Of a stretch of DNA of 64,000 nt, positions 2,179 through 42,903 are shown piece by piece. Origin of the DNA: an uncultured Cytophagia bacterium (GTDB taxonomy: Bacteria > Zhuqueibacterota > Zhuqueibacteria > Thermofontimicrobiales > Thermofontimicrobiaceae); the NCBI GenBank assembly GCA_964605145.1, contig CAZSBG010000003.1, positions 55,028 through 119,027 on the forward strand, given 5' to 3'. Below the pieces are notes generated by a model, which was given only the letters and a program-made list of their open reading frames with translations, had not been told where the DNA came from and did not search any database. Each line of letters opens with the position of its first letter. Position 1 is the first letter of the stretch. A program made the translations under genes and the position numbers.

Positions 2179-3600
2179 GTGGCATTTTTCATAAGGCTGA
2201 ATAGTTACCCAAAATATAAGGATGATATTATGGAGACTTTTGAATCCAAGGTCTCTGATATTTTTAAAGAAAATCCCAGGCTTGCCAGAAAAATACCTGT
2301 TGTCATCCGGCAACTTTTCAAAGAATCCGAGGCTGAATTTCGAAGACGAATAAACAAAGCCTCAGAGCATGAACAACAGGTCGAAATGATGAAACTTTTC
2401 GACATCCTATTCATTGATTACTATTTTGATGAGATTGAAGACAACTTTTTAGCCTGGGTCATCAAAAATTATCCGAAGCGATTCACCAGCTCTGAATTAG
2501 AAGAAATGCGGGCACAGGCTTTTTCACATCTCGATTATTATGAAATTCAGGAAGCGATACCGGGAAAGGGAAGCTATTTTAAATCCCTGACTACCAACAC
2601 CGAAGGATTTTTGAAAGATATTTCTTCTTCTTCTGTTTTAGTCAAATGGGATATTCTTTTAGGGCGCTACTATTTTTATCAAGACACATATTTTGCAACA
2701 GGTGCAACCTCTCTATATAGCCAGTCTGATAAGGAATACATTGTAGAACAAATCGAGAAAGCTAAGCAGGAATATTTCGAAGCCAATCCGGAAGCCGACC
2801 ATGCTGAATTCGCTAAAAAACGTTGGGATATTTTTTTCAAGATTGATGACGGCCTGCGCGACAAGGCAAAGAACAAAAAATTCTATACAACATTCGGCGA
2901 GCTTCAATTCTGCGAAGTTCGGTTCAATATAAAAAATTTCCAGGCAATATTGAATACGATTGATAATTTAGACGAATTCGAGTTCGTCGAAGCCAAGACG
3001 ATCCGAAGAGGAAAGAAGAAAAGATTAAATCGCTTCGAGTTTGATTGGCTTACACTGGGAATAGAGGACGAATTGAATCCCATCCGCGTAACTGAATTTA
3101 ATAATGGACTCATGTTAAAAACAGAGCGATTGGACGCCGACGGAAATAAAATCAGAAATGAAACAATAGGGACTTTTTATCTGGATGTATTTCTGGGCCG
3201 GCTCGAAACAAAATCGCTGGAAATTGCCGAGTTTGCCAGGCACCATTTTGTGGATATTTTTGGGGGAGCGCTCACGTTCAAGCGCATTAACAAGTTGGAT
3301 ATTGATATCAAATCAAAACTCGAAGCACAATCCGATGAGACTGAACCTCTTCCTGTAGGTGACATAGATCCATCGCTGAAAGCCCGCGTAGAAGAACAGC
3401 TATTTCTGGATACGCTGGACGAAAAAATTCCCATGTTGAACAACAAAACGCCCCGCGAAGCCAGCCAAATCCCGGAACTGCGCCCCATACTGATAGACTG
3501 GCTCAAAAGCCTGGAAAACATAATGGAACGAAAGCAAAAATCAGGAGAATCCACGGCTTCCATTGAAAAGATAAAGAGGGAGCTGGGTATTGATTGGTGA
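2179..3600 (+). CDS. Hypothetical protein, compositionally atypical (low-GC) orphan gene
   Basis: 473-aa uninterrupted ORF, one of only two plus-strand genes. GC is ~38-40% against ~55% for its neighbours. It is flanked by a 580-bp AT-rich noncoding stretch upstream and a hairpin-rich 356-bp intergenic region downstream. It is rich in charged and aromatic residues and I recognise no motif. Confidence 0.5.
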   Translation: MAFFIRLNSYPKYKDDIMETFESKVSDIFKENPRLARKIPVVIRQLFKESEAEFRRRINKASEHEQQVEMMKLFDILFIDYYFDEIEDNFLAWVIKNYPKRFTSSELEEMRAQAFSHLDYYEIQEAIPGKGSYFKSLTTNTEGFLKDISSSSVLVKWDILLGRYYFYQDTYFATGATSLYSQSDKEYIVEQIEKAKQEYFEANPEADHAEFAKKRWDIFFKIDDGLRDKAKNKKFYTTFGELQFCEVRFNIKNFQAILNTIDNLDEFEFVEAKTIRRGKKKRLNRFEFDWLTLGIEDELNPIRVTEFNNGLMLKTERLDADGNKIRNETIGTFYLDVFLGRLETKSLEIAEFARHHFVDIFGGALTFKRINKLDIDIKSKLEAQSDETEPLPVGDIDPSLKARVEEQLFLDTLDEKIPMLNNKTPREASQIPELRPILIDWLKSLENIMERKQKSGESTASIEKIKRELGIDW

Positions 3601-17090: not shown

Positions 17091-18878
17091 TTATCTCAGG
17101 AGGGCTTTGGCGATTTTACACGGCGTCGCCCCCAAATTTTCAACCCGGTATTTTCCAAGGCAGGCCGGCACAATGATCGTTTCGGAATAGTTAAAAATGA
17201 AAAATATGTTTGAATCACTGACTGACGAAAGCTTCACCGACTCACCTTCAACCAGGGTAAGCACATGAAATTTTCCATCGGTGTTGTCCTCCATCTTTCT
17301 GTCGAATTCCAATCTGAACACCACATGAAAAAATTCCCGCCGGTCGCCGATGAGATATTCAGCCCAGCCCCTGCCTGAACGAACCAGCTTCGGTTCCTGC
17401 ACGAGATTTTGCGCCACCCACTTTTTCCGCCGGAACCATTTTATCACGTTGAACGCATGCGCCACATGAATGGGCCGCATGACTCCGTTCAGATCCGGGC
17501 GCAGATGGTCGTAAATTTTGAACGTGTAGCGGTAGGTCGTGGCGCTGATTTCCAGCACCACCTGGCCTTCGCCGGAGCCGTGTACGGTACCCGGGGGAAT
17601 CATCAGCAAATCGTGTCTTTTGCTGGGCACACTGTTCACAAAATCGCGATAGTTGAAGCCAATCCCCTTCTCATCGGCTAATTTCGCGGCCTGGTGGAAT
17701 TCCTCCTTTTGGGTTTCGTCCTTCACCCCCAAATTGACGCTGGTTCCCTCTTTCGCCTCAACGATGTAGTACATTTCTCCCTGGTGATACGGTTCGTTAA
17801 AATGTTTACGGATGTACGGCGTTGGCGGGTGCACCTGTATGGACAGATCGCCGCCTTCCATTGTGTCCAGGTAATCGTAACGAATCGGGAATTCACCGCC
17901 GAATCGCCGTTTTGGCACATCGCCCATAATGCTATCGTAACCAAAATGGAAGAAGGTCGTCCACGGTAATTCCAATATTTCTTTTTGAACCGAAACGAGC
18001 AGGCTCATCTCCTGGGCAATCACCTCAAAACTCCACGCACAGTTGAGCCATTCGTCCGGGAGGTTGCGGACTTTTTTCAGCCATTGCCCGCCCCAGGGGC
18101 CAGGTTCGTACATGGGCTTAAGCCGAAACGGAGAAGTGGCCAGTGCACCAGCGATTTTGCGAAGAGCTGACAGCGAAATCAATTTCGGTGAATCAGGGAC
18201 ATTTCCATCGATGTAATAATCAGCCTTTGCCATCAAACTATTTCGATGTCGGTCATTGACTTGAAAATCAACATAATAAAGCTTTTTCGGACTGACGCTC
18301 TGCGTTTTCCCGGCCATCTGCGTCCATGTTTTCGAGCGCTTCAGAACCTCCTGCCGTGTTAAATCAATGTAGAAAATCGAATCATACAATTTTCGAAGCC
18401 GGCTCAGCGCTGCGCCGGGACCAAAGCAAATGACAAACTCCCGCGCTTCGGTCTTCTTCTTCGAACCGGATATTTCCTTCTTCAGCGAGGCTAATTTTTG
18501 TTTGTCGAATAAAGTGACCAAATCCTTCTTATAAATTCTTCCGAACACCGGATCATCGGTTAAAAACGGTGTCAACATTTCATCGATCTCGGACTGCGAT
18601 TTGAGCCCGCTTCCAACATTGAAAAAGGAAACGGAATATCCCCTCTCCGAAAGCTCCGCTTCCATCTGGCCGATTATGAATTGCCAGTCATTGCCAACAT
18701 ACCCATCCAGCGCGATTATCGCTGGTCTATTTTTATTCGGAAATTGGCTCGCATAAAGCTGATCCAGAAATCCGGCAATCGCCTTCCACCCCACAATCGT
18801 TTCATTGTCATTTTCGAGATTGATAAATGGTTGATTTAAAGCTTCTATTCTGCTCTCAAATTCTGCCTGAGTTGTCAT
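17091..18878 (-). CDS. Fusion protein: unknown ~250-aa N-terminal domain plus C-terminal type I mannose-6-phosphate isomerase (cupin)
   Basis: The C-terminal half has PMI type I hallmarks (YEPGPWGGQWLKK, SIQVHP, YHQGEMYYIVEA, and a second cupin region near the end). The N-terminal IIALDGYVGNDW...FVICFGPGAAL region is not recognised. Confidence 0.6.
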   Translation of the reverse strand: MTTQAEFESRIEALNQPFINLENDNETIVGWKAIAGFLDQLYASQFPNKNRPAIIALDGYVGNDWQFIIGQMEAELSERGYSVSFFNVGSGLKSQSEIDEMLTPFLTDDPVFGRIYKKDLVTLFDKQKLASLKKEISGSKKKTEAREFVICFGPGAALSRLRKLYDSIFYIDLTRQEVLKRSKTWTQMAGKTQSVSPKKLYYVDFQVNDRHRNSLMAKADYYIDGNVPDSPKLISLSALRKIAGALATSPFRLKPMYEPGPWGGQWLKKVRNLPDEWLNCAWSFEVIAQEMSLLVSVQKEILELPWTTFFHFGYDSIMGDVPKRRFGGEFPIRYDYLDTMEGGDLSIQVHPPTPYIRKHFNEPYHQGEMYYIVEAKEGTSVNLGVKDETQKEEFHQAAKLADEKGIGFNYRDFVNSVPSKRHDLLMIPPGTVHGSGEGQVVLEISATTYRYTFKIYDHLRPDLNGVMRPIHVAHAFNVIKWFRRKKWVAQNLVQEPKLVRSGRGWAEYLIGDRREFFHVVFRLEFDRKMEDNTDGKFHVLTLVEGESVKLSSVSDSNIFFIFNYSETIIVPACLGKYRVENLGATPCKIAKALLR

Positions 18879-19050: not shown

Positions 19051-20922
19051 CTAAATGCACCCTCTGCTTTTCATGAATCTGGCGAATCGCACCACTTCGT
19101 GCGGTTTGGCTAAAAACAACCGACCGCTGTCACCGCCATTTTTGGCAAAGGTCATGGCTTTTTGTACCTCGGCCAGACTCAATCCTTTGGACGCCAGCCC
19201 AAAATAACACGGCACAAATCCCCAAAATGGCGAATCCAGCCCAAGAATAATCCATCCTTTTTGATGGGAGTTGACGATTTTGTTCTCCCATTTCCGCAAA
19301 TCCGCGAACGGATCGAAGCTCCAGTGCTCTGATTGCTGGTTCAGCACGATGAAATTTTCACTCGAAAACAGAATTTCCGGAAACTGGTTTTCATGTTTGT
19401 AAGAGATCGCGTACTGGAACCCGGCCTCGGCTAACACCTCGAACTGCGGTTCGGCCGTGTTGTGCTTGTACTGCGGACACGCATCCTGGAATGAATAATG
19501 GCCGATGGGAAGATGCTTCTTGCCGGCGTAATGTTCGATCACCCCGAACGCCTGCTTCAGACTTTTGAGATAATGCTCCGGGCTGATGTAGCCTTTGGCT
19601 TCGGTGGCCGCGCCAATGCCGGCGCTCACGAGCAACGGTTCGATGGTTGGATAAACGCCCCCCATTTCTTTGCTGATGTACATCTGCTCGATTCCCTCCT
19701 CGGCGTATTCCCACCACGAACTGGGGAACGCCAGACCAGCGGTCAAACCATCGATGGTGTGCAAATCCAGAATCCGCGGTAACACTGGCAAATGTCCCAA
19801 ATCAGAAGCGTAATGCATGAAACATACCGGGATTTTGCCGTTCTCCAACTGGTCTATCAGAAAATCATCGCTGTATTCCTGCTGCCACGGCGGGATCACA
19901 TCCGGCAGCCAGTCATTTGGCATCTTGATTTTATTTTTGATGGTGATTCCCAATTCCACGTCGTGCACCAGCGAAAAAACGATGTTGTGCTTCGATGCAT
20001 CCGCGATGATCATGTCGTTGAATACCTGGCTGCCCCAGACCAGTTTGTTGCCGACAATGTCGGTCAACTCGCCCAACAATTCCACAGCCCGCGGCAGAGA
20101 CTGCACCGCGGCGATGGCAAGAATGCGGTCGCGCAAATATTTTGGCGTCCAGCGCAGGGTGATGGGATCGTTGCCCAGAGCGAATCCCTTTGCCTCTGAA
20201 ATCCAGCGTCGAGCGATCCGTTCGGTGATGGTGACGTAATTATCTTCCGGCTGTACCGAATCGATGATTTCCACTGCCAATCCAAGCTCTTCAAATCGCG
20301 CAGCCGCTTCGGTGGGACAAAAAATGAGATGGACTTTCTTCAATCCCAGGGAAATCAATCGCTGCCACTGGGAATCATCCAATTCACAATGAAATGCCAG
20401 CGCGTTCCGGAAGAAAATTTCCGGATAGCAGAAGGTATCCAATCTCGATTCCCCGGCAATTTTGAAATTACCCAATACAATTTTTTCGTTGGGAAAGGGA
20501 AGTGTTTCGGCCGAGAAAACCACAGCCTCTGTCGGAAATGGTTCATTGAATTGCTCAAAAATTTCAACATAAAAATCGACAAGCTCGTTCGATGTTTTTT
20601 TCACGATGGCGCCGCGATTCCGCGCTCGCAAAAAACGTTCGAATTGAATCGGCGCTTCTTCGGTCAATGCATAAAAATGAACCGAATCGTAAAAGTTGCA
20701 CAGGTAATAGAATTGCTCATCGTGCTTGTTTCCCGTGTACGGCAAGGCATCGCCGATGTCTGCCACACTGGGCCGGACCGCGAAATAACCATCGTAATCC
20801 ATTCCATGTTTTTCCGCTAACCAGGCTAAAACAGGCAACGCGGTCGCGCGAGCGGGGCAGTTTTCATGGCTGTAGAAAAATAGAAGATCGTTATTTTTAT
20901 GAGATTTTTCTATGTTTGACAT
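19051..20922 (-). CDS. Hypothetical 623-aa protein, probably carbohydrate-active (no confident family)
   Basis: Long ORF at native GC in a carbohydrate-metabolism neighbourhood. No catalytic motifs recognised. Confidence 0.4.
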   Translation of the reverse strand: MSNIEKSHKNNDLLFFYSHENCPARATALPVLAWLAEKHGMDYDGYFAVRPSVADIGDALPYTGNKHDEQFYYLCNFYDSVHFYALTEEAPIQFERFLRARNRGAIVKKTSNELVDFYVEIFEQFNEPFPTEAVVFSAETLPFPNEKIVLGNFKIAGESRLDTFCYPEIFFRNALAFHCELDDSQWQRLISLGLKKVHLIFCPTEAAARFEELGLAVEIIDSVQPEDNYVTITERIARRWISEAKGFALGNDPITLRWTPKYLRDRILAIAAVQSLPRAVELLGELTDIVGNKLVWGSQVFNDMIIADASKHNIVFSLVHDVELGITIKNKIKMPNDWLPDVIPPWQQEYSDDFLIDQLENGKIPVCFMHYASDLGHLPVLPRILDLHTIDGLTAGLAFPSSWWEYAEEGIEQMYISKEMGGVYPTIEPLLVSAGIGAATEAKGYISPEHYLKSLKQAFGVIEHYAGKKHLPIGHYSFQDACPQYKHNTAEPQFEVLAEAGFQYAISYKHENQFPEILFSSENFIVLNQQSEHWSFDPFADLRKWENKIVNSHQKGWIILGLDSPFWGFVPCYFGLASKGLSLAEVQKAMTFAKNGGDSGRLFLAKPHEVVRFARFMKSRGCI

Positions 20923-31585: not shown

Positions 31586-32854
31586 CTATCTCCCCCCAAC
31601 AACCTCCATCGCCATGTGCGCCCACTCCCACAATCGCTGCGGCTGGTACTGCACCGTGCTGATGTCTTTCATAATTATTTCAACAACGCAGCCCTGTAAT
31701 TTCTCCAAATCAGCGACTAATTTTTTGCGGGCTGCTTCCAAATTCCAATTATCAGTTGCCAGCACTGCCGGATTGGGTTTGTATGAAATAACATAATTTT
31801 CACCAATATTCGCGGCGGCTTTGTCCAGATCGGCCCACGGGCTGATGGAAATCTTTCGCAGATTCGGGATGGATTTCAAAATACTCATTTTATGGTGAAG
31901 AGGCTCACAGCACCCATAATAATTCAATCCGAACCGCTCCAGCCAGCGGCGCTCGTATTGCAGGGCAAATTCTTCATGCATGGCCGGAGATACATCGCAG
32001 AATATCTGCGCTGTGGCGCAGCCCCACAAATCAACCGTCCGCACCGTTTTTGGATCGAATCCCGGCTTCGGCAGTTCATCGGTGTAGCCCAGGCCACCGG
32101 AACCGACGCGAAAATTACCCTCAGCATAGGAGAGAAGATTCAGATCGATGTACTGATCCAGCCGGCACAAATACGCGGAAATCAATCGTTCCATAACCAG
32201 ATGAACCAGCTCCGGCCGCATCGCCAAATCCATCAGCGCGTCCTGCACATCCCACCAGCGAATCAGTTCATCCCACGGTGCAAACCATTGATGAACGATA
32301 CCCCGCTTTTTCACTGGTAAAATATCACCAAAGATATTCGACAAAACCTGAAAATTCTCCTCACTGGCGTTTTCATCGTGATGTATCACCGGCATTTTAA
32401 TTTTCTCGATATCCGATTCATTTTGGATTTGCTGATGAAATCCCCGCGAGAGAATATTGCTCTTTTCATCCTGTTTGATAAAATCCACGTCCTCTGTGAT
32501 GCCGAAACCGGAGTCGCGAATAACCAGGGGCGAGTAAAACGCATTTTCAACCAGCATATCGAACGGCGCATGCATCCAAAGGTATATTGTGCGCCGAAGC
32601 TCCTGTTCTGTCCATCGGCAATATTCATTTTCGCATTGCAGCGTTAACTCGCCGTTCACGTCCATTTCATGCCAGGGGAATTCATTAATCCAAACCAGCG
32701 GCCGAACTTTTTTGAGTCCATTGAGCCTGCGCCACAAATCCGCCTTGTGTTGATGTAAAGGTAAAGCGGCAATTTCAGCGACTTTTTCAGCGAGTTGTCT
32801 CAGGATGGATTTGTCATTTGAGGATATTTTCATTCCATTATATTTTTCTATCAA
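31586..32854 (-). CDS. Hypothetical protein, distant URO-D-superfamily-like (third paralog in the region)
   Basis: C-terminal pattern YYGCCEPLHHKMSILKSIPNLRKISISPWAD...NYVISYKPNPAVL...LQGCVVEI parallels HICGNITNHLPDLFKINADIIDFD...TVICGNFDPVEIL...SPGCEVP of the 28506-29525 gene. Confidence 0.4.
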   Translation of the reverse strand: MIEKYNGMKISSNDKSILRQLAEKVAEIAALPLHQHKADLWRRLNGLKKVRPLVWINEFPWHEMDVNGELTLQCENEYCRWTEQELRRTIYLWMHAPFDMLVENAFYSPLVIRDSGFGITEDVDFIKQDEKSNILSRGFHQQIQNESDIEKIKMPVIHHDENASEENFQVLSNIFGDILPVKKRGIVHQWFAPWDELIRWWDVQDALMDLAMRPELVHLVMERLISAYLCRLDQYIDLNLLSYAEGNFRVGSGGLGYTDELPKPGFDPKTVRTVDLWGCATAQIFCDVSPAMHEEFALQYERRWLERFGLNYYGCCEPLHHKMSILKSIPNLRKISISPWADLDKAAANIGENYVISYKPNPAVLATDNWNLEAARKKLVADLEKLQGCVVEIIMKDISTVQYQPQRLWEWAHMAMEVVGGR

Positions 32855-32884
32855 TATACGTCAAATAAAACTGATTTTATCTAT

Positions 32885-33060
32885 CCTCGATTATTCACAT
32901 GATATTCCTAAAGGTATCGAGATAACCTGAATGGTGCTGAATTTAGAGAGTAGTGCATTTTTACGTCTAAAACTGAGTTTCAAATTAATTGATAATTCAA
33001 TTTGCTAATAATCAGGTAATTGAATCAATTTTATTATAATTACATGAATAATTCAGGCTA
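32885..33060. repeat. Intergenic repeat element, copy A (~176 bp, 13-bp terminal inverted repeats)
   Basis: The ends CCTCGATTATTCA ... TGAATAATTCAGG are inverted. There is an internal stem CCTCGAT/ATCGAG and a conserved core GATAACCTGAATGGTGCTGAATT. It lies 31 bp upstream of the start of gene 31586-32854. Confidence 0.6.
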
Positions 33061-33141
33061 TATCAAAATTATGACCAGGACTTATTTTCCTCTACAATTC
33101 AATTCCTTCGAGTCCTGGAGACTTCGCGGCAATATTTCGCA

Positions 33142-33915
33142 CTAGGATTTTAGAACATAAAAAACATACCCATAATAATCCGAGTATTTCCTGTAAAAGG
33201 CCATCTCCTTTTCTTCCAAAGCAAACACCCGGGCCGCGATTTCATCACCTTTATATTTTTCCCTGAGCAATTGAATCCGCTGTTGAAGGGGATTATAATA
33301 ATCATCCCACCACGCGTTTTCCGGGAGAGCAAAATAATCGACCACTTGATACCCGGCGCTTCTGGCGACATTCAGATTTGCTTCGATGCTTTGAATGGCC
33401 GGGTATTCCCGGGTCCAGAATTCATCCAGTTCGTCTGGAGGATTTGGTTTGAGCCACGAAATCTCTGTAACAGCAACATAACCGCCGTCTTTCAAGAATC
33501 GTTTCCATTGGCGCAATCCTTTTTCAAAACCAATGATGTAAATGGCGCCCTCGGACCAAATGACATCGAATTCAGCCGGGCTGAACTGAAGATTGAACAT
33601 GTCTCCGTTTTGAGGGAAAACTCGCTCTTCGTATTTAAGCGAATTCACCTGCCGCTGCAACTGATCTATAAATGGCTGATGATTATCCACGGCATGAATG
33701 ACACCGGTTGAAAGTTCAGCCAAATCCAGCGTTTGATTGCCCGGGCCGCAGCCGACATCGAGAATTTTCGGATTATTGGGAAGATTTTTCAAAGCTGAAA
33801 ACGCTCTTCTCGTTGATTCAAGATCGCCTGGGCCCTGTCGGGGCATATCGCTGTGAATTTCAAAAAAAATATTTTCCATGTGCTGCTTTGGATTAATTCC
33901 ATTTTCTTGACTCAT
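33142..33915 (-). CDS. Class I SAM-dependent methyltransferase
   Basis: Motif I ILDVGCGPGNQTLDLAE; 257 aa. Confidence 0.8.
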   Translation of the reverse strand: MSQENGINPKQHMENIFFEIHSDMPRQGPGDLESTRRAFSALKNLPNNPKILDVGCGPGNQTLDLAELSTGVIHAVDNHQPFIDQLQRQVNSLKYEERVFPQNGDMFNLQFSPAEFDVIWSEGAIYIIGFEKGLRQWKRFLKDGGYVAVTEISWLKPNPPDELDEFWTREYPAIQSIEANLNVARSAGYQVVDYFALPENAWWDDYYNPLQQRIQLLREKYKGDEIAARVFALEEKEMAFYRKYSDYYGYVFYVLKS

Positions 33916-33919
33916 TTCA

Positions 33920-34642
33920 TCACTTCTGTATTTTATGTTTCAAAAACCATTCATATAATTTCGGATTAGCGTATGTTTCGGTCCAGGAATCATGGGCAGC
34001 CTCCGGATAAACAGTGAATTTCACATCCGCGCCCAGCGCGGTGAGCGCGGCCACCATTTCCTGAGATTTTTCAATGGGCACGACTTCATCCTTTGCCCCG
34101 TGAAATACCCAGACCGGGATATGTTTGATTGTTTCCACTTTTGAGGGATCGCCGCCTCCACACACCGGCGCAATGGCAGCAAATCGATTGGGATATTCCG
34201 TAGCCAGCGCCCACGTGCCATATCCGCCCATGCTCAGTCCGGTGAGGTACTGGCGCGTTGTATCGATCCGATATTCGGCTGTAACATCTTTCAGAAGTTT
34301 GTCCAGATTTTCAATATCCCACCACTGATCTTCAGGACACTGAGGGGCAACAACGATAAATGGAAATTGCTGTCCATGCTCAATCAGCTTGGGTGGACCA
34401 TGCAGCTTCACTTTCTGGAGATCGTTGCCGCGTTCACCTGCGCCATGCAGAAATAATAGTAGGGACCATTTTTTATGGCTTGATTGATAGCTTTCAGGCA
34501 GGTAGAGCAGATATTTCACTTTTCCATCATCTTTCATCTCTTTTTCCAGCATGGTTCCGGGATCTCCTTGTTTATGGATTGTAACTTTGTGTGAACAATT
34601 CGAAAGGAATAAAATAACTGTGAATATCACTATTTTTTTCAT
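33920..34642 (-). CDS. Lipoprotein alpha/beta-hydrolase (carboxylesterase / S9 peptidase family)
   Basis: Lipobox signal MKKIVIFTVILFLSNCSH. Nucleophile elbow LTGLSMGGYGTW with a downstream HGAKDEVVP and AAHD. The ORF extends to 34666. Confidence 0.75.
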   Translation of the reverse strand: MKKIVIFTVILFLSNCSHKVTIHKQGDPGTMLEKEMKDDGKVKYLLYLPESYQSSHKKWSLLLFLHGAGERGNDLQKVKLHGPPKLIEHGQQFPFIVVAPQCPEDQWWDIENLDKLLKDVTAEYRIDTTRQYLTGLSMGGYGTWALATEYPNRFAAIAPVCGGGDPSKVETIKHIPVWVFHGAKDEVVPIEKSQEMVAALTALGADVKFTVYPEAAHDSWTETYANPKLYEWFLKHKIQK

Positions 34643-34912
34643 TTCAATCCCCGATAATTTCTGCATTCAGCCTTTGGAATAATTTAGTACAAACTGTTAA
34701 AATGTCAAGAGAAAATTTTGAATTGAGAACAAATCATTAATCTTTATGAAGGGTGATGTCAATTGGAAACATCGGACATTCTATCGTGGTTCATCCGTCT
34801 AAGGAAGAAATTGATGGCGTTTCGACCTTTTATACAAATACATTGCATTTTACAATAGAATTTCATATTATGACAATCACATACAAAATAATATCTTTAA
34901 ACGAGGTGAAAT

Positions 34913-36244
34913 ATGAATAAAATTTTCTTGCTGGTGATTTTTCTTATTCCAGCGCTCCTGTTAGCGGATGAAGATGAATTCAATACAGATAGATTGCCGC
35001 TCGGCAATCCGGCTACAAGATACGATTTTGCCGCTGTTTATAAGGATAGCATTCTGGATTGCGGAACTCAAAAAAATATTTCATTCGAGAACCTGATTCA
35101 GGAACTGAAAAATTACAAGCTCATTCTCATTGGCGAAAGCCACACCAACGATTCTCACCACCAGGTGCAATTACAAATCATGAAAGGCCTCATCGAAACA
35201 GGGAAAAGCGTTTGTCTCGCGCTGGAAATGTTCAATCCAGCTCAAAATGAAATATTGAATCAATATACTTCCGGCGCGATTACAGAAGAGAACTTTTTGA
35301 ACCAATCCGATTATTTCAATACCTGGGGACACAATTATCGATATTATAAACCAATTTTCGATTTTGCGCGAGCGAATAAAATTGACATGCACGGCGTGAA
35401 TACGGAACACTCGTTTGCATCCAAAATTGGGCGCGGAGGATTAGAATCACTTACAGCGGAGGAACTCGCGCAGCTACCGACCATTGACACCACCAATGCT
35501 GAGCACCGATTTTACATTAAATCGGTGATGGAAGGCATGGATGCCACATCCCCGAAACAATTTGAACGAATCTACCAGGCCCAGAGTCTGTGGGATACGG
35601 TCATGGGTGAAGGCGCTATCTCGGTGGCCAAAGAAAATCCGGGTGCAATTGTCATCGTGCTTGCCGGAAGCGGCCACGTGGTGTATAACCTGGGAATTGG
35701 CAGAATCATTCAGGATCGGAGCGAGTTCTCGTTTGCTTCGCTGGTATCCGTGGATATTCCGGACACAGTTAAAAAATCTGTGATGATGCAAGTTAAACAA
35801 GGCTTGAAAAAGAAAAAAGCGCAGGCAGATTCGACCGGATCGAAACGTAAACATGGTAAATCAAAAATGCAAATGGCAATGATGCACGGAGCCATGTCAG
35901 ATGCTGTTCCCTATCGAATTGTGGCGCGCAGCCTGGCCGATTTCCTGTGGGGCCTTCCGGAAGAAAAACGGGAAAAATATCCATCCCTGGGATTTTCAGT
36001 GAATGATAAATCTGAATTCGGGTTTGAAATTAAAATGGTTTACCCTGAATCGATTGCCGAGCAACAGGATTTGAAGCGCGGGGATATTATTCAGTCTGTC
36101 GACGAAAAAACATTCGCAAACAAAGCGGCGCTGAAAAGATACCTGGGTTCGAAAAATTGGGACGAGATAATCTCATTTGAAATTATTCGCGGCGACAAGG
36201 AGGTTCAATTTAAATTTACCATCGTGGATGAAGATGAAGAATAG
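34913..36244 (+). CDS. Secreted ChaN/Tiki-family (haem-binding uptake-like) protein with C-terminal PDZ domain
   Basis: Signal peptide, ChaN motif LILIGESHTNDSHH, and a C-terminal PDZ-like GFSVNDKSEFGFEIKMVYPESIAEQQDLKRGDIIQSVDE. Confidence 0.6.
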   Translation: MNKIFLLVIFLIPALLLADEDEFNTDRLPLGNPATRYDFAAVYKDSILDCGTQKNISFENLIQELKNYKLILIGESHTNDSHHQVQLQIMKGLIETGKSVCLALEMFNPAQNEILNQYTSGAITEENFLNQSDYFNTWGHNYRYYKPIFDFARANKIDMHGVNTEHSFASKIGRGGLESLTAEELAQLPTIDTTNAEHRFYIKSVMEGMDATSPKQFERIYQAQSLWDTVMGEGAISVAKENPGAIVIVLAGSGHVVYNLGIGRIIQDRSEFSFASLVSVDIPDTVKKSVMMQVKQGLKKKKAQADSTGSKRKHGKSKMQMAMMHGAMSDAVPYRIVARSLADFLWGLPEEKREKYPSLGFSVNDKSEFGFEIKMVYPESIAEQQDLKRGDIIQSVDEKTFANKAALKRYLGSKNWDEIISFEIIRGDKEVQFKFTIVDEDEE

Positions 36245-36296
36245 CTTTTTCGATTCATTTTTATTTCTAATTTATCACAATTAAAATTTGAGTAAA

Positions 36297-36335
36297 CCAG
36301 TGGCATAAGCCACTGGCCTACCCGCTGTTTTCTTT
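36297..36335 (+). terminator. Intrinsic terminator after the ChaN-PDZ gene
   Basis: Perfect 8-bp stem CCAGTGGC-ATAA-GCCACTGG followed by CTGTTTTCTTT, 53 bp after the stop codon. Confidence 0.6.
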
Positions 36336-36423
36336 ATCAATGCAATCGAATATCAGCGCTGTACTCGGATGTCATTTCTGTGAGACGACGAAATAATTCC
36401 GAATCATCGCTTTTGCAAATATT

Positions 36424-36912
36424 TTAATACTCTTCCAGCTTATTGAATTCAGCATTTTCCACCCATGCATCCGGCCGGGAAAGATATTCTGCAAGGCTAT
36501 CCATCAGGAAGATGTGTTTCTTTTCTTCCTCGGCAATCTTCAGCAGTAATTTTTTCGCGGCGTCGCCTTCAACTTCGTTGGCCTTTTCAAGATAAAATTG
36601 ATGGCTTTTCTCTTCGATATCTTTTGCTTTTTCATAAAATTCAACTTGCGGCATTTCCTGATTGAATGTCTCATTTTTTTCTTTCATTTCAAAGAATACA
36701 TTTTTCGCGTCCGACAATATGCTGGTTTCCCTCAATGCTGGATTATCCTGTTTTTCGTTTAGTTTTTTCAACAGTTCGAAATGCTTCACTTCCTCGTTCG
36801 CCAGGAGATTCAAGATATTTTTCAATCCCGAATGATTTGTTTTTTCTGCCAGTTCCCGGTAGTAATTTTCACCGTCTTTTTCCATTTGCATCGCGAATTC
36901 GTAAATATTCAT
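36424..36912 (-). CDS. Rubrerythrin-like ferritin-fold diiron protein (no rubredoxin domain)
   Basis: MEKDGENYY start and two E..H motifs (NEEVKHFELL, EEEKKHIFLM) typical of the rubrerythrin/ferritin-like family. Confidence 0.6.
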   Translation of the reverse strand: MNIYEFAMQMEKDGENYYRELAEKTNHSGLKNILNLLANEEVKHFELLKKLNEKQDNPALRETSILSDAKNVFFEMKEKNETFNQEMPQVEFYEKAKDIEEKSHQFYLEKANEVEGDAAKKLLLKIAEEEKKHIFLMDSLAEYLSRPDAWVENAEFNKLEEY

Positions 36913-37095
36913 GTTTCGTTCTCCTTGTTAACAATTTATTAAATGATTATCTGATTTCCTCATCAAACTAAATAAAATTCAAAATTCCAAAAATCGAAAA
37001 AAAAGTTCACATAAATAACAATTTCAAAACTACAATGTTCCAAAATACAGGGTAATATTTCGTGCGCACTTTATTGATTAATTGCCAATCAAATG

Positions 37096-40426
<3,331 letters not shown>

Positions 40427-40446
<20 letters not shown>

Positions 40447-41287
40447 TTTCGCGGACGGCTAAAATCTCGACAAATTTCGACAGAACTTCATCGCGATCTT
40501 TCCCACTCAACGCCAGCGCCAGTTGCGCCATGAGCAATCCATATTTCACGCCGACATCGTAACGCCAGTCATCTTTTTCAATGGCAAGGTACTGCTCCCG
40601 TTTTGCCAGTTCTGCCAGAGCCTCTGAAAGTGTTATGCCGGGACTCTCACCGGGATCTTCGATGAGTCGTTCCAGGATATCAAAAACAGTGGGCGTAAGC
40701 ACATGCATGCCAAAGAAACAAAGATAATAGCCGGCGCGCAGGCCGGGCACGATCAATCGCTGCTCCGCTTCCGTGGGCGTGGCTTTTTCGATGACTTCAT
40801 CAATGCGGTACAAATCCGGCTGGCCCTGAATCCGACCGCCACCAATGGCGCCGTAAAATGGAAGAAGATTTTCCCGCGACGCCTGCACGGCTGATACCGC
40901 GCATTCTTTAGTCTCCGCCACTCGCACAAGATGCTGAGCGCATCCTTCTTCGTGACGGCTCACATAAAGATGGTCTCCCACCAGATGCAAAAATGAATCA
41001 TTCCCGATGAAATTTTTGGCGCAATACACAGCATGGCCATAGCCAAGCTGCTGCTGTTGATGTTCAAAATGGAGGCGCCCGGCATGATCGCCCACAACAT
41101 CCCGGAACGCAACTTCATCTCCGGGTTGTGTGATCACGCAAATTTCCTCCACACCGGCTCTCAGCGCCTCTTCCACAATGATTCGCAGCACAGATTTTTC
41201 AGTCCCGTCCCGATCGATGAGCGTCTGAATCGGCAAAGTGCGCTGATTTTTCCCGGCTGCTGTAATAACAGCTTTGGTGATTTTCAT
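40427..41287 (-). CDS. Sugar-1-phosphate nucleotidyltransferase, UTP--glucose-1-phosphate uridylyltransferase (GalU) family
   Basis: [15 protein letters not shown] (compare KAVIPVAGLGTRMLP in GalU), GYGHAV and EKATP motifs; 286 aa. Confidence 0.65.
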
Positions 41288-41411
41288 TTTTCACTCCAAA
41301 ATAAAATAGAATTAATATACTCGTCCCGGCCCAAAATATCAAGCGGAAAAAAGGTAAACATAAAGATTAAGATTTTTCACATTTGTCTTTGCCTTTGCCC
41401 TATCTTCTGCC

Positions 41412-42071
41412 CTATTTTCCAATGCTCAGCGCAATAAGTAGCTGTCCTGAGTAATAAAACGCCAGGCTGATCCTATTTAATTTGAAAGGATGACGAAATT
41501 TATTGATCGCCAAAATCAGATCTGACAGGTAAAACAGCACTGCACCACCAGTAATGAACACAGCCCTGGTAAAGCTGAAATATTCATTGTAAAGACTTGC
41601 AAAAGCTCGATTCAGCATGACTGTGATAATGATGACATAAAATAAAACAGGCAGCTTCATCCCTCCAAGCCCTTTGAAGAGATAGGCATAGACAATTGCC
41701 GCAACGGTGAATAGAATAACCCCGGGGATCAAATCGTGTCGGCTTAACTGAAATGGAATTGAAAACGCGATGGTATAAATAATATGCGTCACCAGAAAAA
41801 ATATCAGCCCCAGCATAAATGCTTTTTTGGATTTTCTGATGAGCGCCACATCGCCTCCAAAAGAAAAGAGGAGACCGGCAAGGATGAAATAAAAATAAAT
41901 TGGAGAGGCGAGCTCCCGACTTAACACAGGGATTAAAGCAATGAAAATAACGGTCAGTGTGGACAAAGGTTTGAATATGCAAATTTGAGTGAGCTTTTCA
42001 GCGAATTCAGCCCGAATCAGCAGTGTCACTAAAACAAAGAGAATTCCGATAGCAACACAATAAATAATCAT
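41412..42071 (-). CDS. YhhN-family (lysoplasmalogenase-like) polytopic membrane protein
   Basis: 219 aa, ~8 TM helices, with the FKPLSTL motif (compare FKPLTM in YhhN). Confidence 0.45.
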   Translation of the reverse strand: MIIYCVAIGILFVLVTLLIRAEFAEKLTQICIFKPLSTLTVIFIALIPVLSRELASPIYFYFILAGLLFSFGGDVALIRKSKKAFMLGLIFFLVTHIIYTIAFSIPFQLSRHDLIPGVILFTVAAIVYAYLFKGLGGMKLPVLFYVIIITVMLNRAFASLYNEYFSFTRAVFITGGAVLFYLSDLILAINKFRHPFKLNRISLAFYYSGQLLIALSIGK

Positions 42072-42123
42072 TGATCTCCTTTCATTATATTAAAATTCTA
42101 CAGAATTAAAAATAATCAACTAA

Positions 42124-42288
42124 CCTGGATTATTCATTGTAATTCATTAAGGAATCCAGATAGCCTGAATGGTGCTTAATTCAGAATTCGTTATATCAAA
42201 CTCTGTTAAATTTCACACATCTCGTTAATCTTTTTAATAACATTTATTTATATATGTTTAGGTTGAAATCTGTGAATAATTCAGGCTA
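42124..42288. repeat. Intergenic repeat element, copy B (~165 bp, 13-bp terminal inverted repeats)
   Basis: Ends CCTGGATTATTCA ... TGAATAATTCAGG match 12 of 13 bp as inverted repeats. Internal stem CCTGGAT/ATCCAG; core GATAGCCTGAATGGTGCTTAATTCAG. It lies 52 bp upstream of the YhhN-like gene start. Confidence 0.6.
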
Positions 42289-42333
42289 AAAGTAATGAAT
42301 GATCATTCATCACACAAATTGGCAATTTCTATT

Positions 42334-42903
42334 TCATTCTTGGTTCATAAATTCGTCCCTCAGGATTCCGTAAAATTCGATGTCTTCAAATACTCCCCAT
42401 TTCTTCACATGTTTTCTGAGCGTTCCTTCCTTTTTCATCCCGAGCTTTTGCATCACCCGCCCCGAAGAAGAATTACGGCTCAAGTGATGGGCATAAATTT
42501 TATGCAATTCTAATTGTTCAAATCCATATTGCAGCATTGCTCGCGCAGCTTCTGTGCAGTAGCCATGATTCCAGTATTTTCTTCCGATCCAGTAGCCCAT
42601 GGCAGCAGTTTCATGAACTTCGGAGATTTCCGAGAGTCCAATGGCGCCAATGAGATCCTTTTTCTGGCGGTGGATAATCGCTAAAATCACCTCAGTTTTC
42701 TCCTCAAACAAACGTTGATGCGTACTGATCCATGTATTGGCCATGCCATCTTCGTAGGGATGTGGAATATTTAGCGTGGTGGAAGCGACTGATTTGTCAC
42801 CGGCAAGTTCGGTTACAACTTGTGCGTCATCCAGCGAGAATTGCCTGAGAATTAATTTTTCAGTGGTCAAGCGCGGATATTTTTTTGTGGATGTTGGATT
42901 CAT
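42334..42903 (-). CDS. GNAT-family N-acetyltransferase (RimJ/RimL-like)
   Basis: LILRQFSLDDAQVVTEL...; 189 aa with the GNAT motif A region (IGAIGLSEI...GYWIGRKYWNHGYCTEAARAM). Confidence 0.8.
   Translation of the reverse strand: MNPTSTKKYPRLTTEKLILRQFSLDDAQVVTELAGDKSVASTTLNIPHPYEDGMANTWISTHQRLFEEKTEVILAIIHRQKKDLIGAIGLSEISEVHETAAMGYWIGRKYWNHGYCTEAARAMLQYGFEQLELHKIYAHHLSRNSSSGRVMQKLGMKKEGTLRKHVKKWGVFEDIEFYGILRDEFMNQE

Follow-up and report, generated by a model that had tools for sequence, protein, structure and literature searches.

Two short non-coding repeats in front of unrelated genes of an uncultivated bacterium are probably MITE insertions

In a 64,000-nt stretch of bacterial chromosome (the window), two similar non-coding sequences, called copy A and copy B here, are found immediately upstream of two minus-strand genes. 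The copies have inverted ends and an internal stem in which both arms differ between them, which raised the question of whether they are structured RNAs acting on the genes behind them or mobile elements with a maintained hairpin. A reading made from the sequence alone had proposed both possibilities. We compared the two copies with each other, with the same spacers in close relatives and with known families of RNAs and mobile elements. We concluded that the repeat is ordinary selfish DNA in the spacers before two unrelated genes, not a conserved regulatory RNA. In our estimate, the probability that A and B are MITE insertions, that is, copies of a non-autonomous DNA transposon of 162-173 bp moved in trans, is about 85%.

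The two copies and their surroundings

Annotation of all large ORFs with Pfam and NCBIfam indicated an ordinary stretch of chromosome, with genes for URO-D-like methyltransferases, CobW, glycosyltransferases, BamD, NadD, and a GH38 protein that has a type IX secretion tail. No transposase or recombinase domain was found in the large ORFs of the window with Pfam or NCBIfam. Exact matches to the proteins of the window were present only in the Logan assemblies of SRR7048224 and SRR7048225, and the nearest named homologues were from Zhuqueibacterota, KSB1, and Marinimicrobia MAGs, with identity of 51-58% in the case of YhhN. The window is almost entirely minus-strand, and the ORF at 2179-3600 is among its few large ORFs on the plus strand. 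This ORF and those at 17091-18878 and 19051-20922 (both minus) encode 473, 595, and 623 aa, respectively; none of the three had a Pfam match at 1e-5, and an NCBIfam match was marginal at most.

Both copies occupy intergenic spacers between co-directional minus-strand genes. Copy A is placed between a gene for a class I methyltransferase (33142-33915, minus) and a gene for a conserved hypothetical protein of 415 aa (31586-32833, minus), and copy B between a GNAT acetyltransferase gene (42334-42903, minus) and a YhhN/lysoplasmalogenase gene (41412-42071, minus). The start of the 415-aa protein was assigned to the ATG at 32833, because its homologues cover the protein from the first residue. Counted from this ATG and from that of YhhN at 42071, copy A is 51 nt and copy B 52 nt upstream of its gene start, and both have the same orientation, in agreement with what had been read from the sequence. 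The near-equal distances (32834-32884 and 42072-42123) and the common orientation come from two cases and may be coincidence. Alternatively, insertion at similar distances could mean that the upstream edge of promoter regions is a preferred target.

Some features of this neighbourhood are described in their own right. The 415-aa protein (31586-32833, minus) had no Pfam or NCBIfam match, yet it is unusually conserved, with thousands of homologues at 63-70% identity across many phyla, including Omnitrophota, Latescibacteria, Armatimonadota, Chloroflexi, and Firmicutes. Its gene neighbours code for a URO-D-like methyltransferase, CobW, DUF6635, and an acyl-ACP thioesterase, and this order is kept in relatives. 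Just past the methyltransferase stop, there is a hairpin of the AGTCT-NNNNN-AGACT type (33095-33140, minus), whose position is kept in the window and in the orthologous loci L012 (1070-1100) and L015 (1680-1715), with changes present in the stem.

When copy A was compared with the window by blastn, copy B was matched at 80.6% over 67 nt (E 1.8e-11), and a further match, an exact and colinear 16-mer, was found at the far end (E 0.009). In the gene-proximal 66 bp, 51 of the 66 positions are identical between A and B, which gave an alignment score of 35 vs -2.6 +/- 3.6 for shuffled sequences, and the distal 13 bp of the two copies are the same. The interior between these shared parts (82-92 bp) scored 4.5 vs 5.4 +/- 3.6 for shuffled sequences. 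The similarity of A and B exceeds chance. The sequence-only reading had described a second copy with the same ends and core. The second copy is real, but the repeated part amounts to only ~80 of ~170 bp and the core differs at two positions (GATAACCTGAATGGTGCTGAATT in A and GATAGCCTGAATGGTGCTTAATT in B). Within the core, both copies have an exact CCTGAATGGTGCT, a 13-mer that the window contains at no other place.

Table 1. Coordinates of copies A and B and of their parts in the window
Feature	Position	Strand	Length or sequence	Remark
Copy A, non-coding MITE-like insertion	32885..33057	-	173 bp	Absent from orthologous spacers L012-L016
Copy B	42124..42285	-	162 bp	Clean insertion vs L020, L021, L022
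Proximal terminal inverted repeat of A	32885..32897	+	CCTCGATTATTCA	11/13 complementary to distal repeat
Distal terminal inverted repeat of A	33045..33057	+	TGAATAATTCAGG	Same sequence in B
Proximal terminal inverted repeat of B	42124-42136		CCTGGATTATTCA	12/13 complementary to distal repeat
Distal terminal inverted repeat of B	42273..42285	+	TGAATAATTCAGG	
Target-site duplication of A, gene-proximal	32881..32884		CTAT (plus strand), ATAG (gene orientation)	Abuts repeat directly
Target-site duplication of A, distal	33058..33061		CTAT	
Target-site duplication of B, gene-proximal	42120..42123		CTAA (plus strand), TTAG (gene orientation)	Relative has a single TTAG here
Target-site duplication of B, distal	42286..42289		CTAA	
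Conserved subterminal block of A	32885..32950	-	66 bp	Proximal repeat, stem partner, and core
Conserved subterminal block of B	42124..42188	-	65 bp	CCTGGATTATTCA, stem partner ATCCAG, and core
Stem partner in block of A	32924-32919		ATCGAG	Minus-strand reading TCTCGAT
Core 13-mer in A	32926-32938		CCTGAATGGTGCT	
Core 13-mer in B	42164-42176		CCTGAATGGTGCT	

The ends of both copies are indeed inverted, as had been claimed, and the 13-bp terminal inverted repeats of A and B have the general form CCTSRATTATTCA (Table 1). The starts of the elements had been placed correctly, but the true ends are at 33057 and 42285, and the next four bases in each case are target-site duplications. A search for such duplications had been suggested, and it found A to be flanked by CTAT, and B by CTAA, on either side; the layout of A in gene orientation is ATAG-(173 bp)-ATAG. 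Because three of the four duplicated bases (TAG) are common to both copies, the duplication may in part be target preference or element sequence. The heptamer CCTGAAT/CCTSGAT is present four times per element, once at each end and twice internally, and its orientation alternates. The G+C content of the elements is 28% vs 46% for the window. Neither element has coding capacity to speak of: copy B contains no ORF of at least 20 aa, and copy A contains only fragments of 25-41 aa.

No match was obtained with Rfam 15 over the whole window at the gathering score, and none at E<=5 within 32700-42450 overlapped either element. There was no consensus-like promoter within either element facing the genes. 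A near-consensus sigma-70-like sequence, TTGACG-16-TATAAT, was seen at 32837-32864 (minus), between copy A and its gene. It is doubtful as the promoter of the 415-aa gene because its second hexamer ends 3 nt before the ATG, and its transcript would at best be leaderless or internal. Three other candidates were rejected on reading the sequence: an integron attC site (no GTTRRRY core sites), a retron ncRNA (no reverse transcriptase downstream), and a sigma-54 promoter (no GG-N10-GC motif in the right orientation).

The known copy number is two in 64 kb. Neither an nhmmer profile of the block nor one of the whole element detected a third copy in the window, and nhmmer found none in contigs of the same organism or of related ones (~60 kb); the ~1.7 kb beyond the window held none either. 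The window also contained no autonomous partner and no other sequences like the terminal repeats. The pattern scans of contig collections required exact matches. In genome contigs, ATARCCTGAATGGTGCTKAAT gave 0 matches, and no copy was among the matches listed for GATTATTCAN{22,34}CCTGAATGGTGCT. The pattern ARCCTGAATGGTGCTKAAT hit 10 loci in metagenome contigs, all of them chance matches without any other part of the element, and the core combined with the distal end gave 0 matches in viral contigs. Neither element was matched by blastn in a plasmid collection.

All four same-species Logan contigs that reach the elements (L001, L017, L018, and L019) stop inside them, at window positions 42147, 42236, and 33031. 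L019 stops exactly 30 nt (k-1) past the TAG common to both target duplications, a stop point that would be expected from another near-identical copy of A but is ambiguous. L017 and L018 stop 30 nt past a T/C SNP at 42266. Because this break coincides with the SNP and with very AT-rich sequence there, the contig breaks are ambiguous as evidence of a repeat.

Filled and empty sites in relatives

The deciding comparison was that of locus B with the contigs L020, L021, and L022, which represent one close relative recovered from three independent samples. The order of genes in these contigs is as in the window (GNAT, YhhN, and NTP-transferase), and YhhN of L020 is 94.7% identical to that of the window in nucleotides and 94% in protein. 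The GNAT-YhhN spacer is, however, 96 bp in the relative and 262 bp in the window. In the relative, the site reads ...CATAAATT TTAG ATGATTATTTT..., with a single TTAG. In the window, it reads ...CATTACTT TTAG, then the element (CCTGAATTATTCA ... TGAATAATCCAGG), then TTAG TTGATTATTTT.... When element B and one TTAG were taken out, the spacer of the window became exactly 96 bp and was 89.6% identical to that of the relative without any gap. An insertion of a transposon with a 4-bp target-site duplication leaves this signature, as does its precise excision.

None of the five orthologous loci compared at locus A (L012-L016) contained the element. The orthologous spacer is 103 bp in L012, L013, and L014 (93% aa). 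In L015 (92% aa), it is 227 bp and consists of unrelated sequence, and L016 (80% aa) is also without the element. The window without element A aligned with L015 across the junction. Because the spacer has diverged, the empty site at locus A is not base-precise.

We noticed that L015 carries a different extra segment of ~90 nt with a CCCCGA...TCGGGG hairpin at 1700-1870 (orthologous to ~33062-32880). The segment lies at roughly the same point of the spacer as copy A, and a second relative has neither insert. The spacer between the methyltransferase and the 415-aa gene may be an insertion hot spot.

The suggestion of a MITE-like element, one of the two possibilities offered earlier, was borne out by the terminal inverted repeats, the 4-bp direct repeats at both copies, the gap-free empty site, the lack of coding capacity, and the low G+C content.

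Base pairing and rival explanations

The internal stem reads CCTCGAT/ATCGAG in A and CCTGGAT/ATCCAG in B, as reported earlier, which amounts to one double change from C-G to G-C. It belongs to a stem, P2, formed by the terminal repeat and an internal inverted copy of it, with arms 21-22 nt apart. A second pairing, P1, is a long-range one between the distal end and the core, and three of its pairs are borrowed from the flanking target duplication (TAG). Two G:U wobbles, one in P1 of copy A and one closing P2, pair only on the gene-sense strand. The sense strand of copy B folded into P1 and P2 with a z-score of -4.0, and 0 of 200 shuffled sequences folded as well. Copy A folded no better than shuffled sequences on either strand (z -0.6 for sense and -0.5 for antisense).

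The double change had been taken as an argument for selection on base pairing. The change itself is real, but one pair in two sequences is suggestive at best. With six core stem pairs, and assuming ~23% divergence of the block and uniform rates, the calculated chance of seeing zero disruptive changes in the six pairs was ~0.05, and that of zero disruptive changes plus at least one compensatory double change was ~0.008. If the arm in the terminal repeat is free to vary, the calculated chance of its partner changing to match was ~0.08. Base pairing or the symmetry of the inverted repeats may therefore be maintained. Recognition by a protein is an unlikely cause of the covariation, because the three kinds of end have G, C, or G at position 4 of the repeat. 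This leaves a hairpin with a function in the element or its parent, at the level of DNA or RNA, or quasi-palindrome correction by template switching, which requires no selection, or else chance.

The sequence-only reading had offered a structured RNA leader or riboregulator as one possibility. Such a cis-acting RNA, a leader or an intergenic riboregulator, would be co-transcribed with the minus-strand genes, be selected for its base pairing, and control the downstream gene through P1 and P2. The compensatory change in P2, the two wobbles tolerated on the gene-sense strand only, the fold of the sense strand of copy B (z -4.0), and the common orientation of both copies 51-52 nt from an ATG are consistent with such an RNA. 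This proposal did not withstand comparison with relatives, in which the sequence is not conserved upstream of orthologues at 80-94% aa (L012-L016 at locus A, and YhhN in L020-L022). It is also made unlikely by the arrival of the sequence as an insertion with a target duplication, by the downstream genes being unrelated to each other (the 415-aa hypothetical gene and YhhN), by the folding of copy A, which equals that of shuffled sequences, and by the lack of any Rfam family at E<=5. Three pairs of P1 are supplied by the target duplication, which is outside the element, and the covariation is that of one pair in two sequences. We consider a cis-acting RNA improbable. Because transposition explains the covarying-looking repeat, the repeat should be dropped as a riboregulator candidate. 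A related and likewise unlikely idea is that the conserved 66-bp block is a portable structured module, made of the P2 hairpin, a semi-conserved loop of 21-22 nt, and P1 closing a variable insert. The MITE would then deliver the module to a set distance of ~51 nt upstream of start codons, where it would act in the host transcript, for example in processing, stability, or translation control.

Explanations at the DNA level other than transposition fared worse. If the shared blocks were operators for one transcription factor that joins two operons in one regulon, the 11-bp palindrome TGAATAATTCA, which is exact at both distal ends and has related half-sites at the proximal ends, would be the binding site, and the spacing of ~150 bp between distal and proximal sites could allow DNA looping. 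Both copies are just upstream of gene starts, and the sigma-70-like TTGACG-16-TATAAT lies between A and its gene. The corresponding promoters of close relatives, however, lack the sites, inverted repeats and target duplications enclose the unit as a whole, and TGAATWATTCA is not above chance in the window (6 found vs 3.25 +/- 1.78 expected). Protein recognition does not predict the covarying C/G either, and position 4 (G, C, or G) appears to be freely tolerated. An operator is thus highly improbable. Least probable to us is an inverton, in which a site-specific recombinase would flip an invertible promoter segment at the 13-bp inverted repeats. The ~150-bp segment between inverted repeats immediately upstream of genes has the expected arrangement, but no recombinase domain was found in the large ORFs of the window, no promoter-like site inside the elements faces the genes, and only 11/13 positions match between the repeats in A. 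Of the same-species Logan contigs, all four that enter the elements do so in the orientation of the window, although the sampling is limited, and they break past the inner repeat edges instead of at them. The 4-bp direct repeats and the empty site would be left unexplained by inversion.

The intergenic position between co-directional genes and the ability to form a hairpin also recall REP/REPIN-like DNA spread by a RAYT (IS200/IS605-type), or a TA-duplicating MITE of the IS630/Tc1-mariner type like Correia, RUP, and Nezha, and the duplicated NTAG does contain TA. We give these little credence. To our knowledge, REP/REPIN and IS200/IS605 derivatives have no target duplication and no terminal inverted repeats of the kind in A and B. 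Both of these are present here. REP/REPIN units are also short palindromes that reach very high copy numbers and go with a RAYT gene, and no Y1 transposase was found in the window. A duplication of TA only would make the outermost bases G...T in B and G...A in A, unpaired and differing between the copies, whereas the 4-bp reading gives symmetric ends. A TA-duplicating MITE is in any case a sub-case of the best explanation and no true rival, because it would still be a MITE.

Insertion model and comparison with known elements

In the MITE reading, a DDE-type transposase encoded elsewhere in the genome would bind the 13-bp terminal repeats, and it may also bind the CCTGAAT/CCTSGAT heptamers as subterminal sites. 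An NTAG target would be cut with a 4-nt stagger and the element pasted in, and repair of the stagger would yield the target duplications (ATAG and TTAG in gene orientation). The 66-bp block is probably the remnant of one end of a parent insertion sequence, subterminal hairpin included. The asymmetric conservation (66 bp vs 13 bp) and the unrelated interiors would fit deletion derivatives of such a parent. The unrelated interiors also suggest that A and B may be independent derivatives or separate subfamilies that have only the mobility ends in common. That both copies lie ~51 nt upstream of a start codon reflects where each insertion landed or was tolerated.

Prokaryotic MITEs are shorter than 500 bp and AT-rich, have terminal repeats of 4-30 bp and flanking direct repeats, and are intergenic (PMC10969869). 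At 173 bp (A) and 162 bp (B), the elements are below the ceiling of ~500 bp, and their 13-bp repeats fall within the range of 4-30 bp. The known examples compared here were the Correia elements of Neisseria, RUP of Streptococcus pneumoniae, Nezha of cyanobacteria, and the QMITEs of Coxiella (PMC10969869). Like them, A and B are under 500 bp, AT-rich, and intergenic, have terminal inverted repeats and target duplications, encode no transposase, can form stem-loops in read-through transcripts, and vary in presence between close relatives. They differ in that no sequence similarity to A and B was detected in Rfam, in plasmids, or, among the matches listed, in the pattern scans of genome, metagenome, and viral contigs, and in that the two copies have only the ends and one 66-bp subterminal block in common, not the whole length. 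Correia, RUP, and Nezha elements duplicate TA, whereas the duplication of A and B is most simply 4 bp.

Target duplications of 4 bp are known for the IS5 group of IS5, some members of the IS427 group, IS1182, and the IS407 group of IS3, and those of IS1380 are 4-5 bp (PMC3281130 Table 2). The 4-bp duplication of A and B is like those of the IS5 group, some IS427-group members, IS1182, and the IS407 group, a length that is common to several families. The ends of A and B begin with CC. This is how IS1380-family ends begin, whereas IS5-group ends begin with GG or GA. YTAR is the preferred target of the IS5 group. The target of B (TTAG/CTAA) fits this preference, and that of A (ATAG/CTAT) does not.

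The ends of IS10 and IS50 form fold-back hairpins that protect against read-through. In a similar way, the terminal repeat of A and B can pair with an internal inverted copy 21-22 nt away, and on the inward-reading strand the stem ends 10 nt before the conserved ATGGTGCT(G/T)AAT, which may be what is left of a start codon. Unlike in IS10 and IS50, no Shine-Dalgarno sequence is evident, and the wobble pairs of A and B favour the opposite strand. The short ORFs (25 aa in A and 19 aa in B) have only four codons in common. The likeness to the IS10 and IS50 hairpins is purely inferential.

If the portable-module reading were true, A and B would represent a mobile riboregulator family in an uncultivated FCB-group-like lineage. 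Should further copies confirm that the subterminal hairpin is kept up, the elements would be a modest example of a structure conserved within a mobile element. As MITE insertions, A and B would be a new MITE family from an uncultivated bacterium, with CCTSRATTATTCA ends and an NTAG target, and the family would be a marker for strain-level insertion polymorphism in that lineage.
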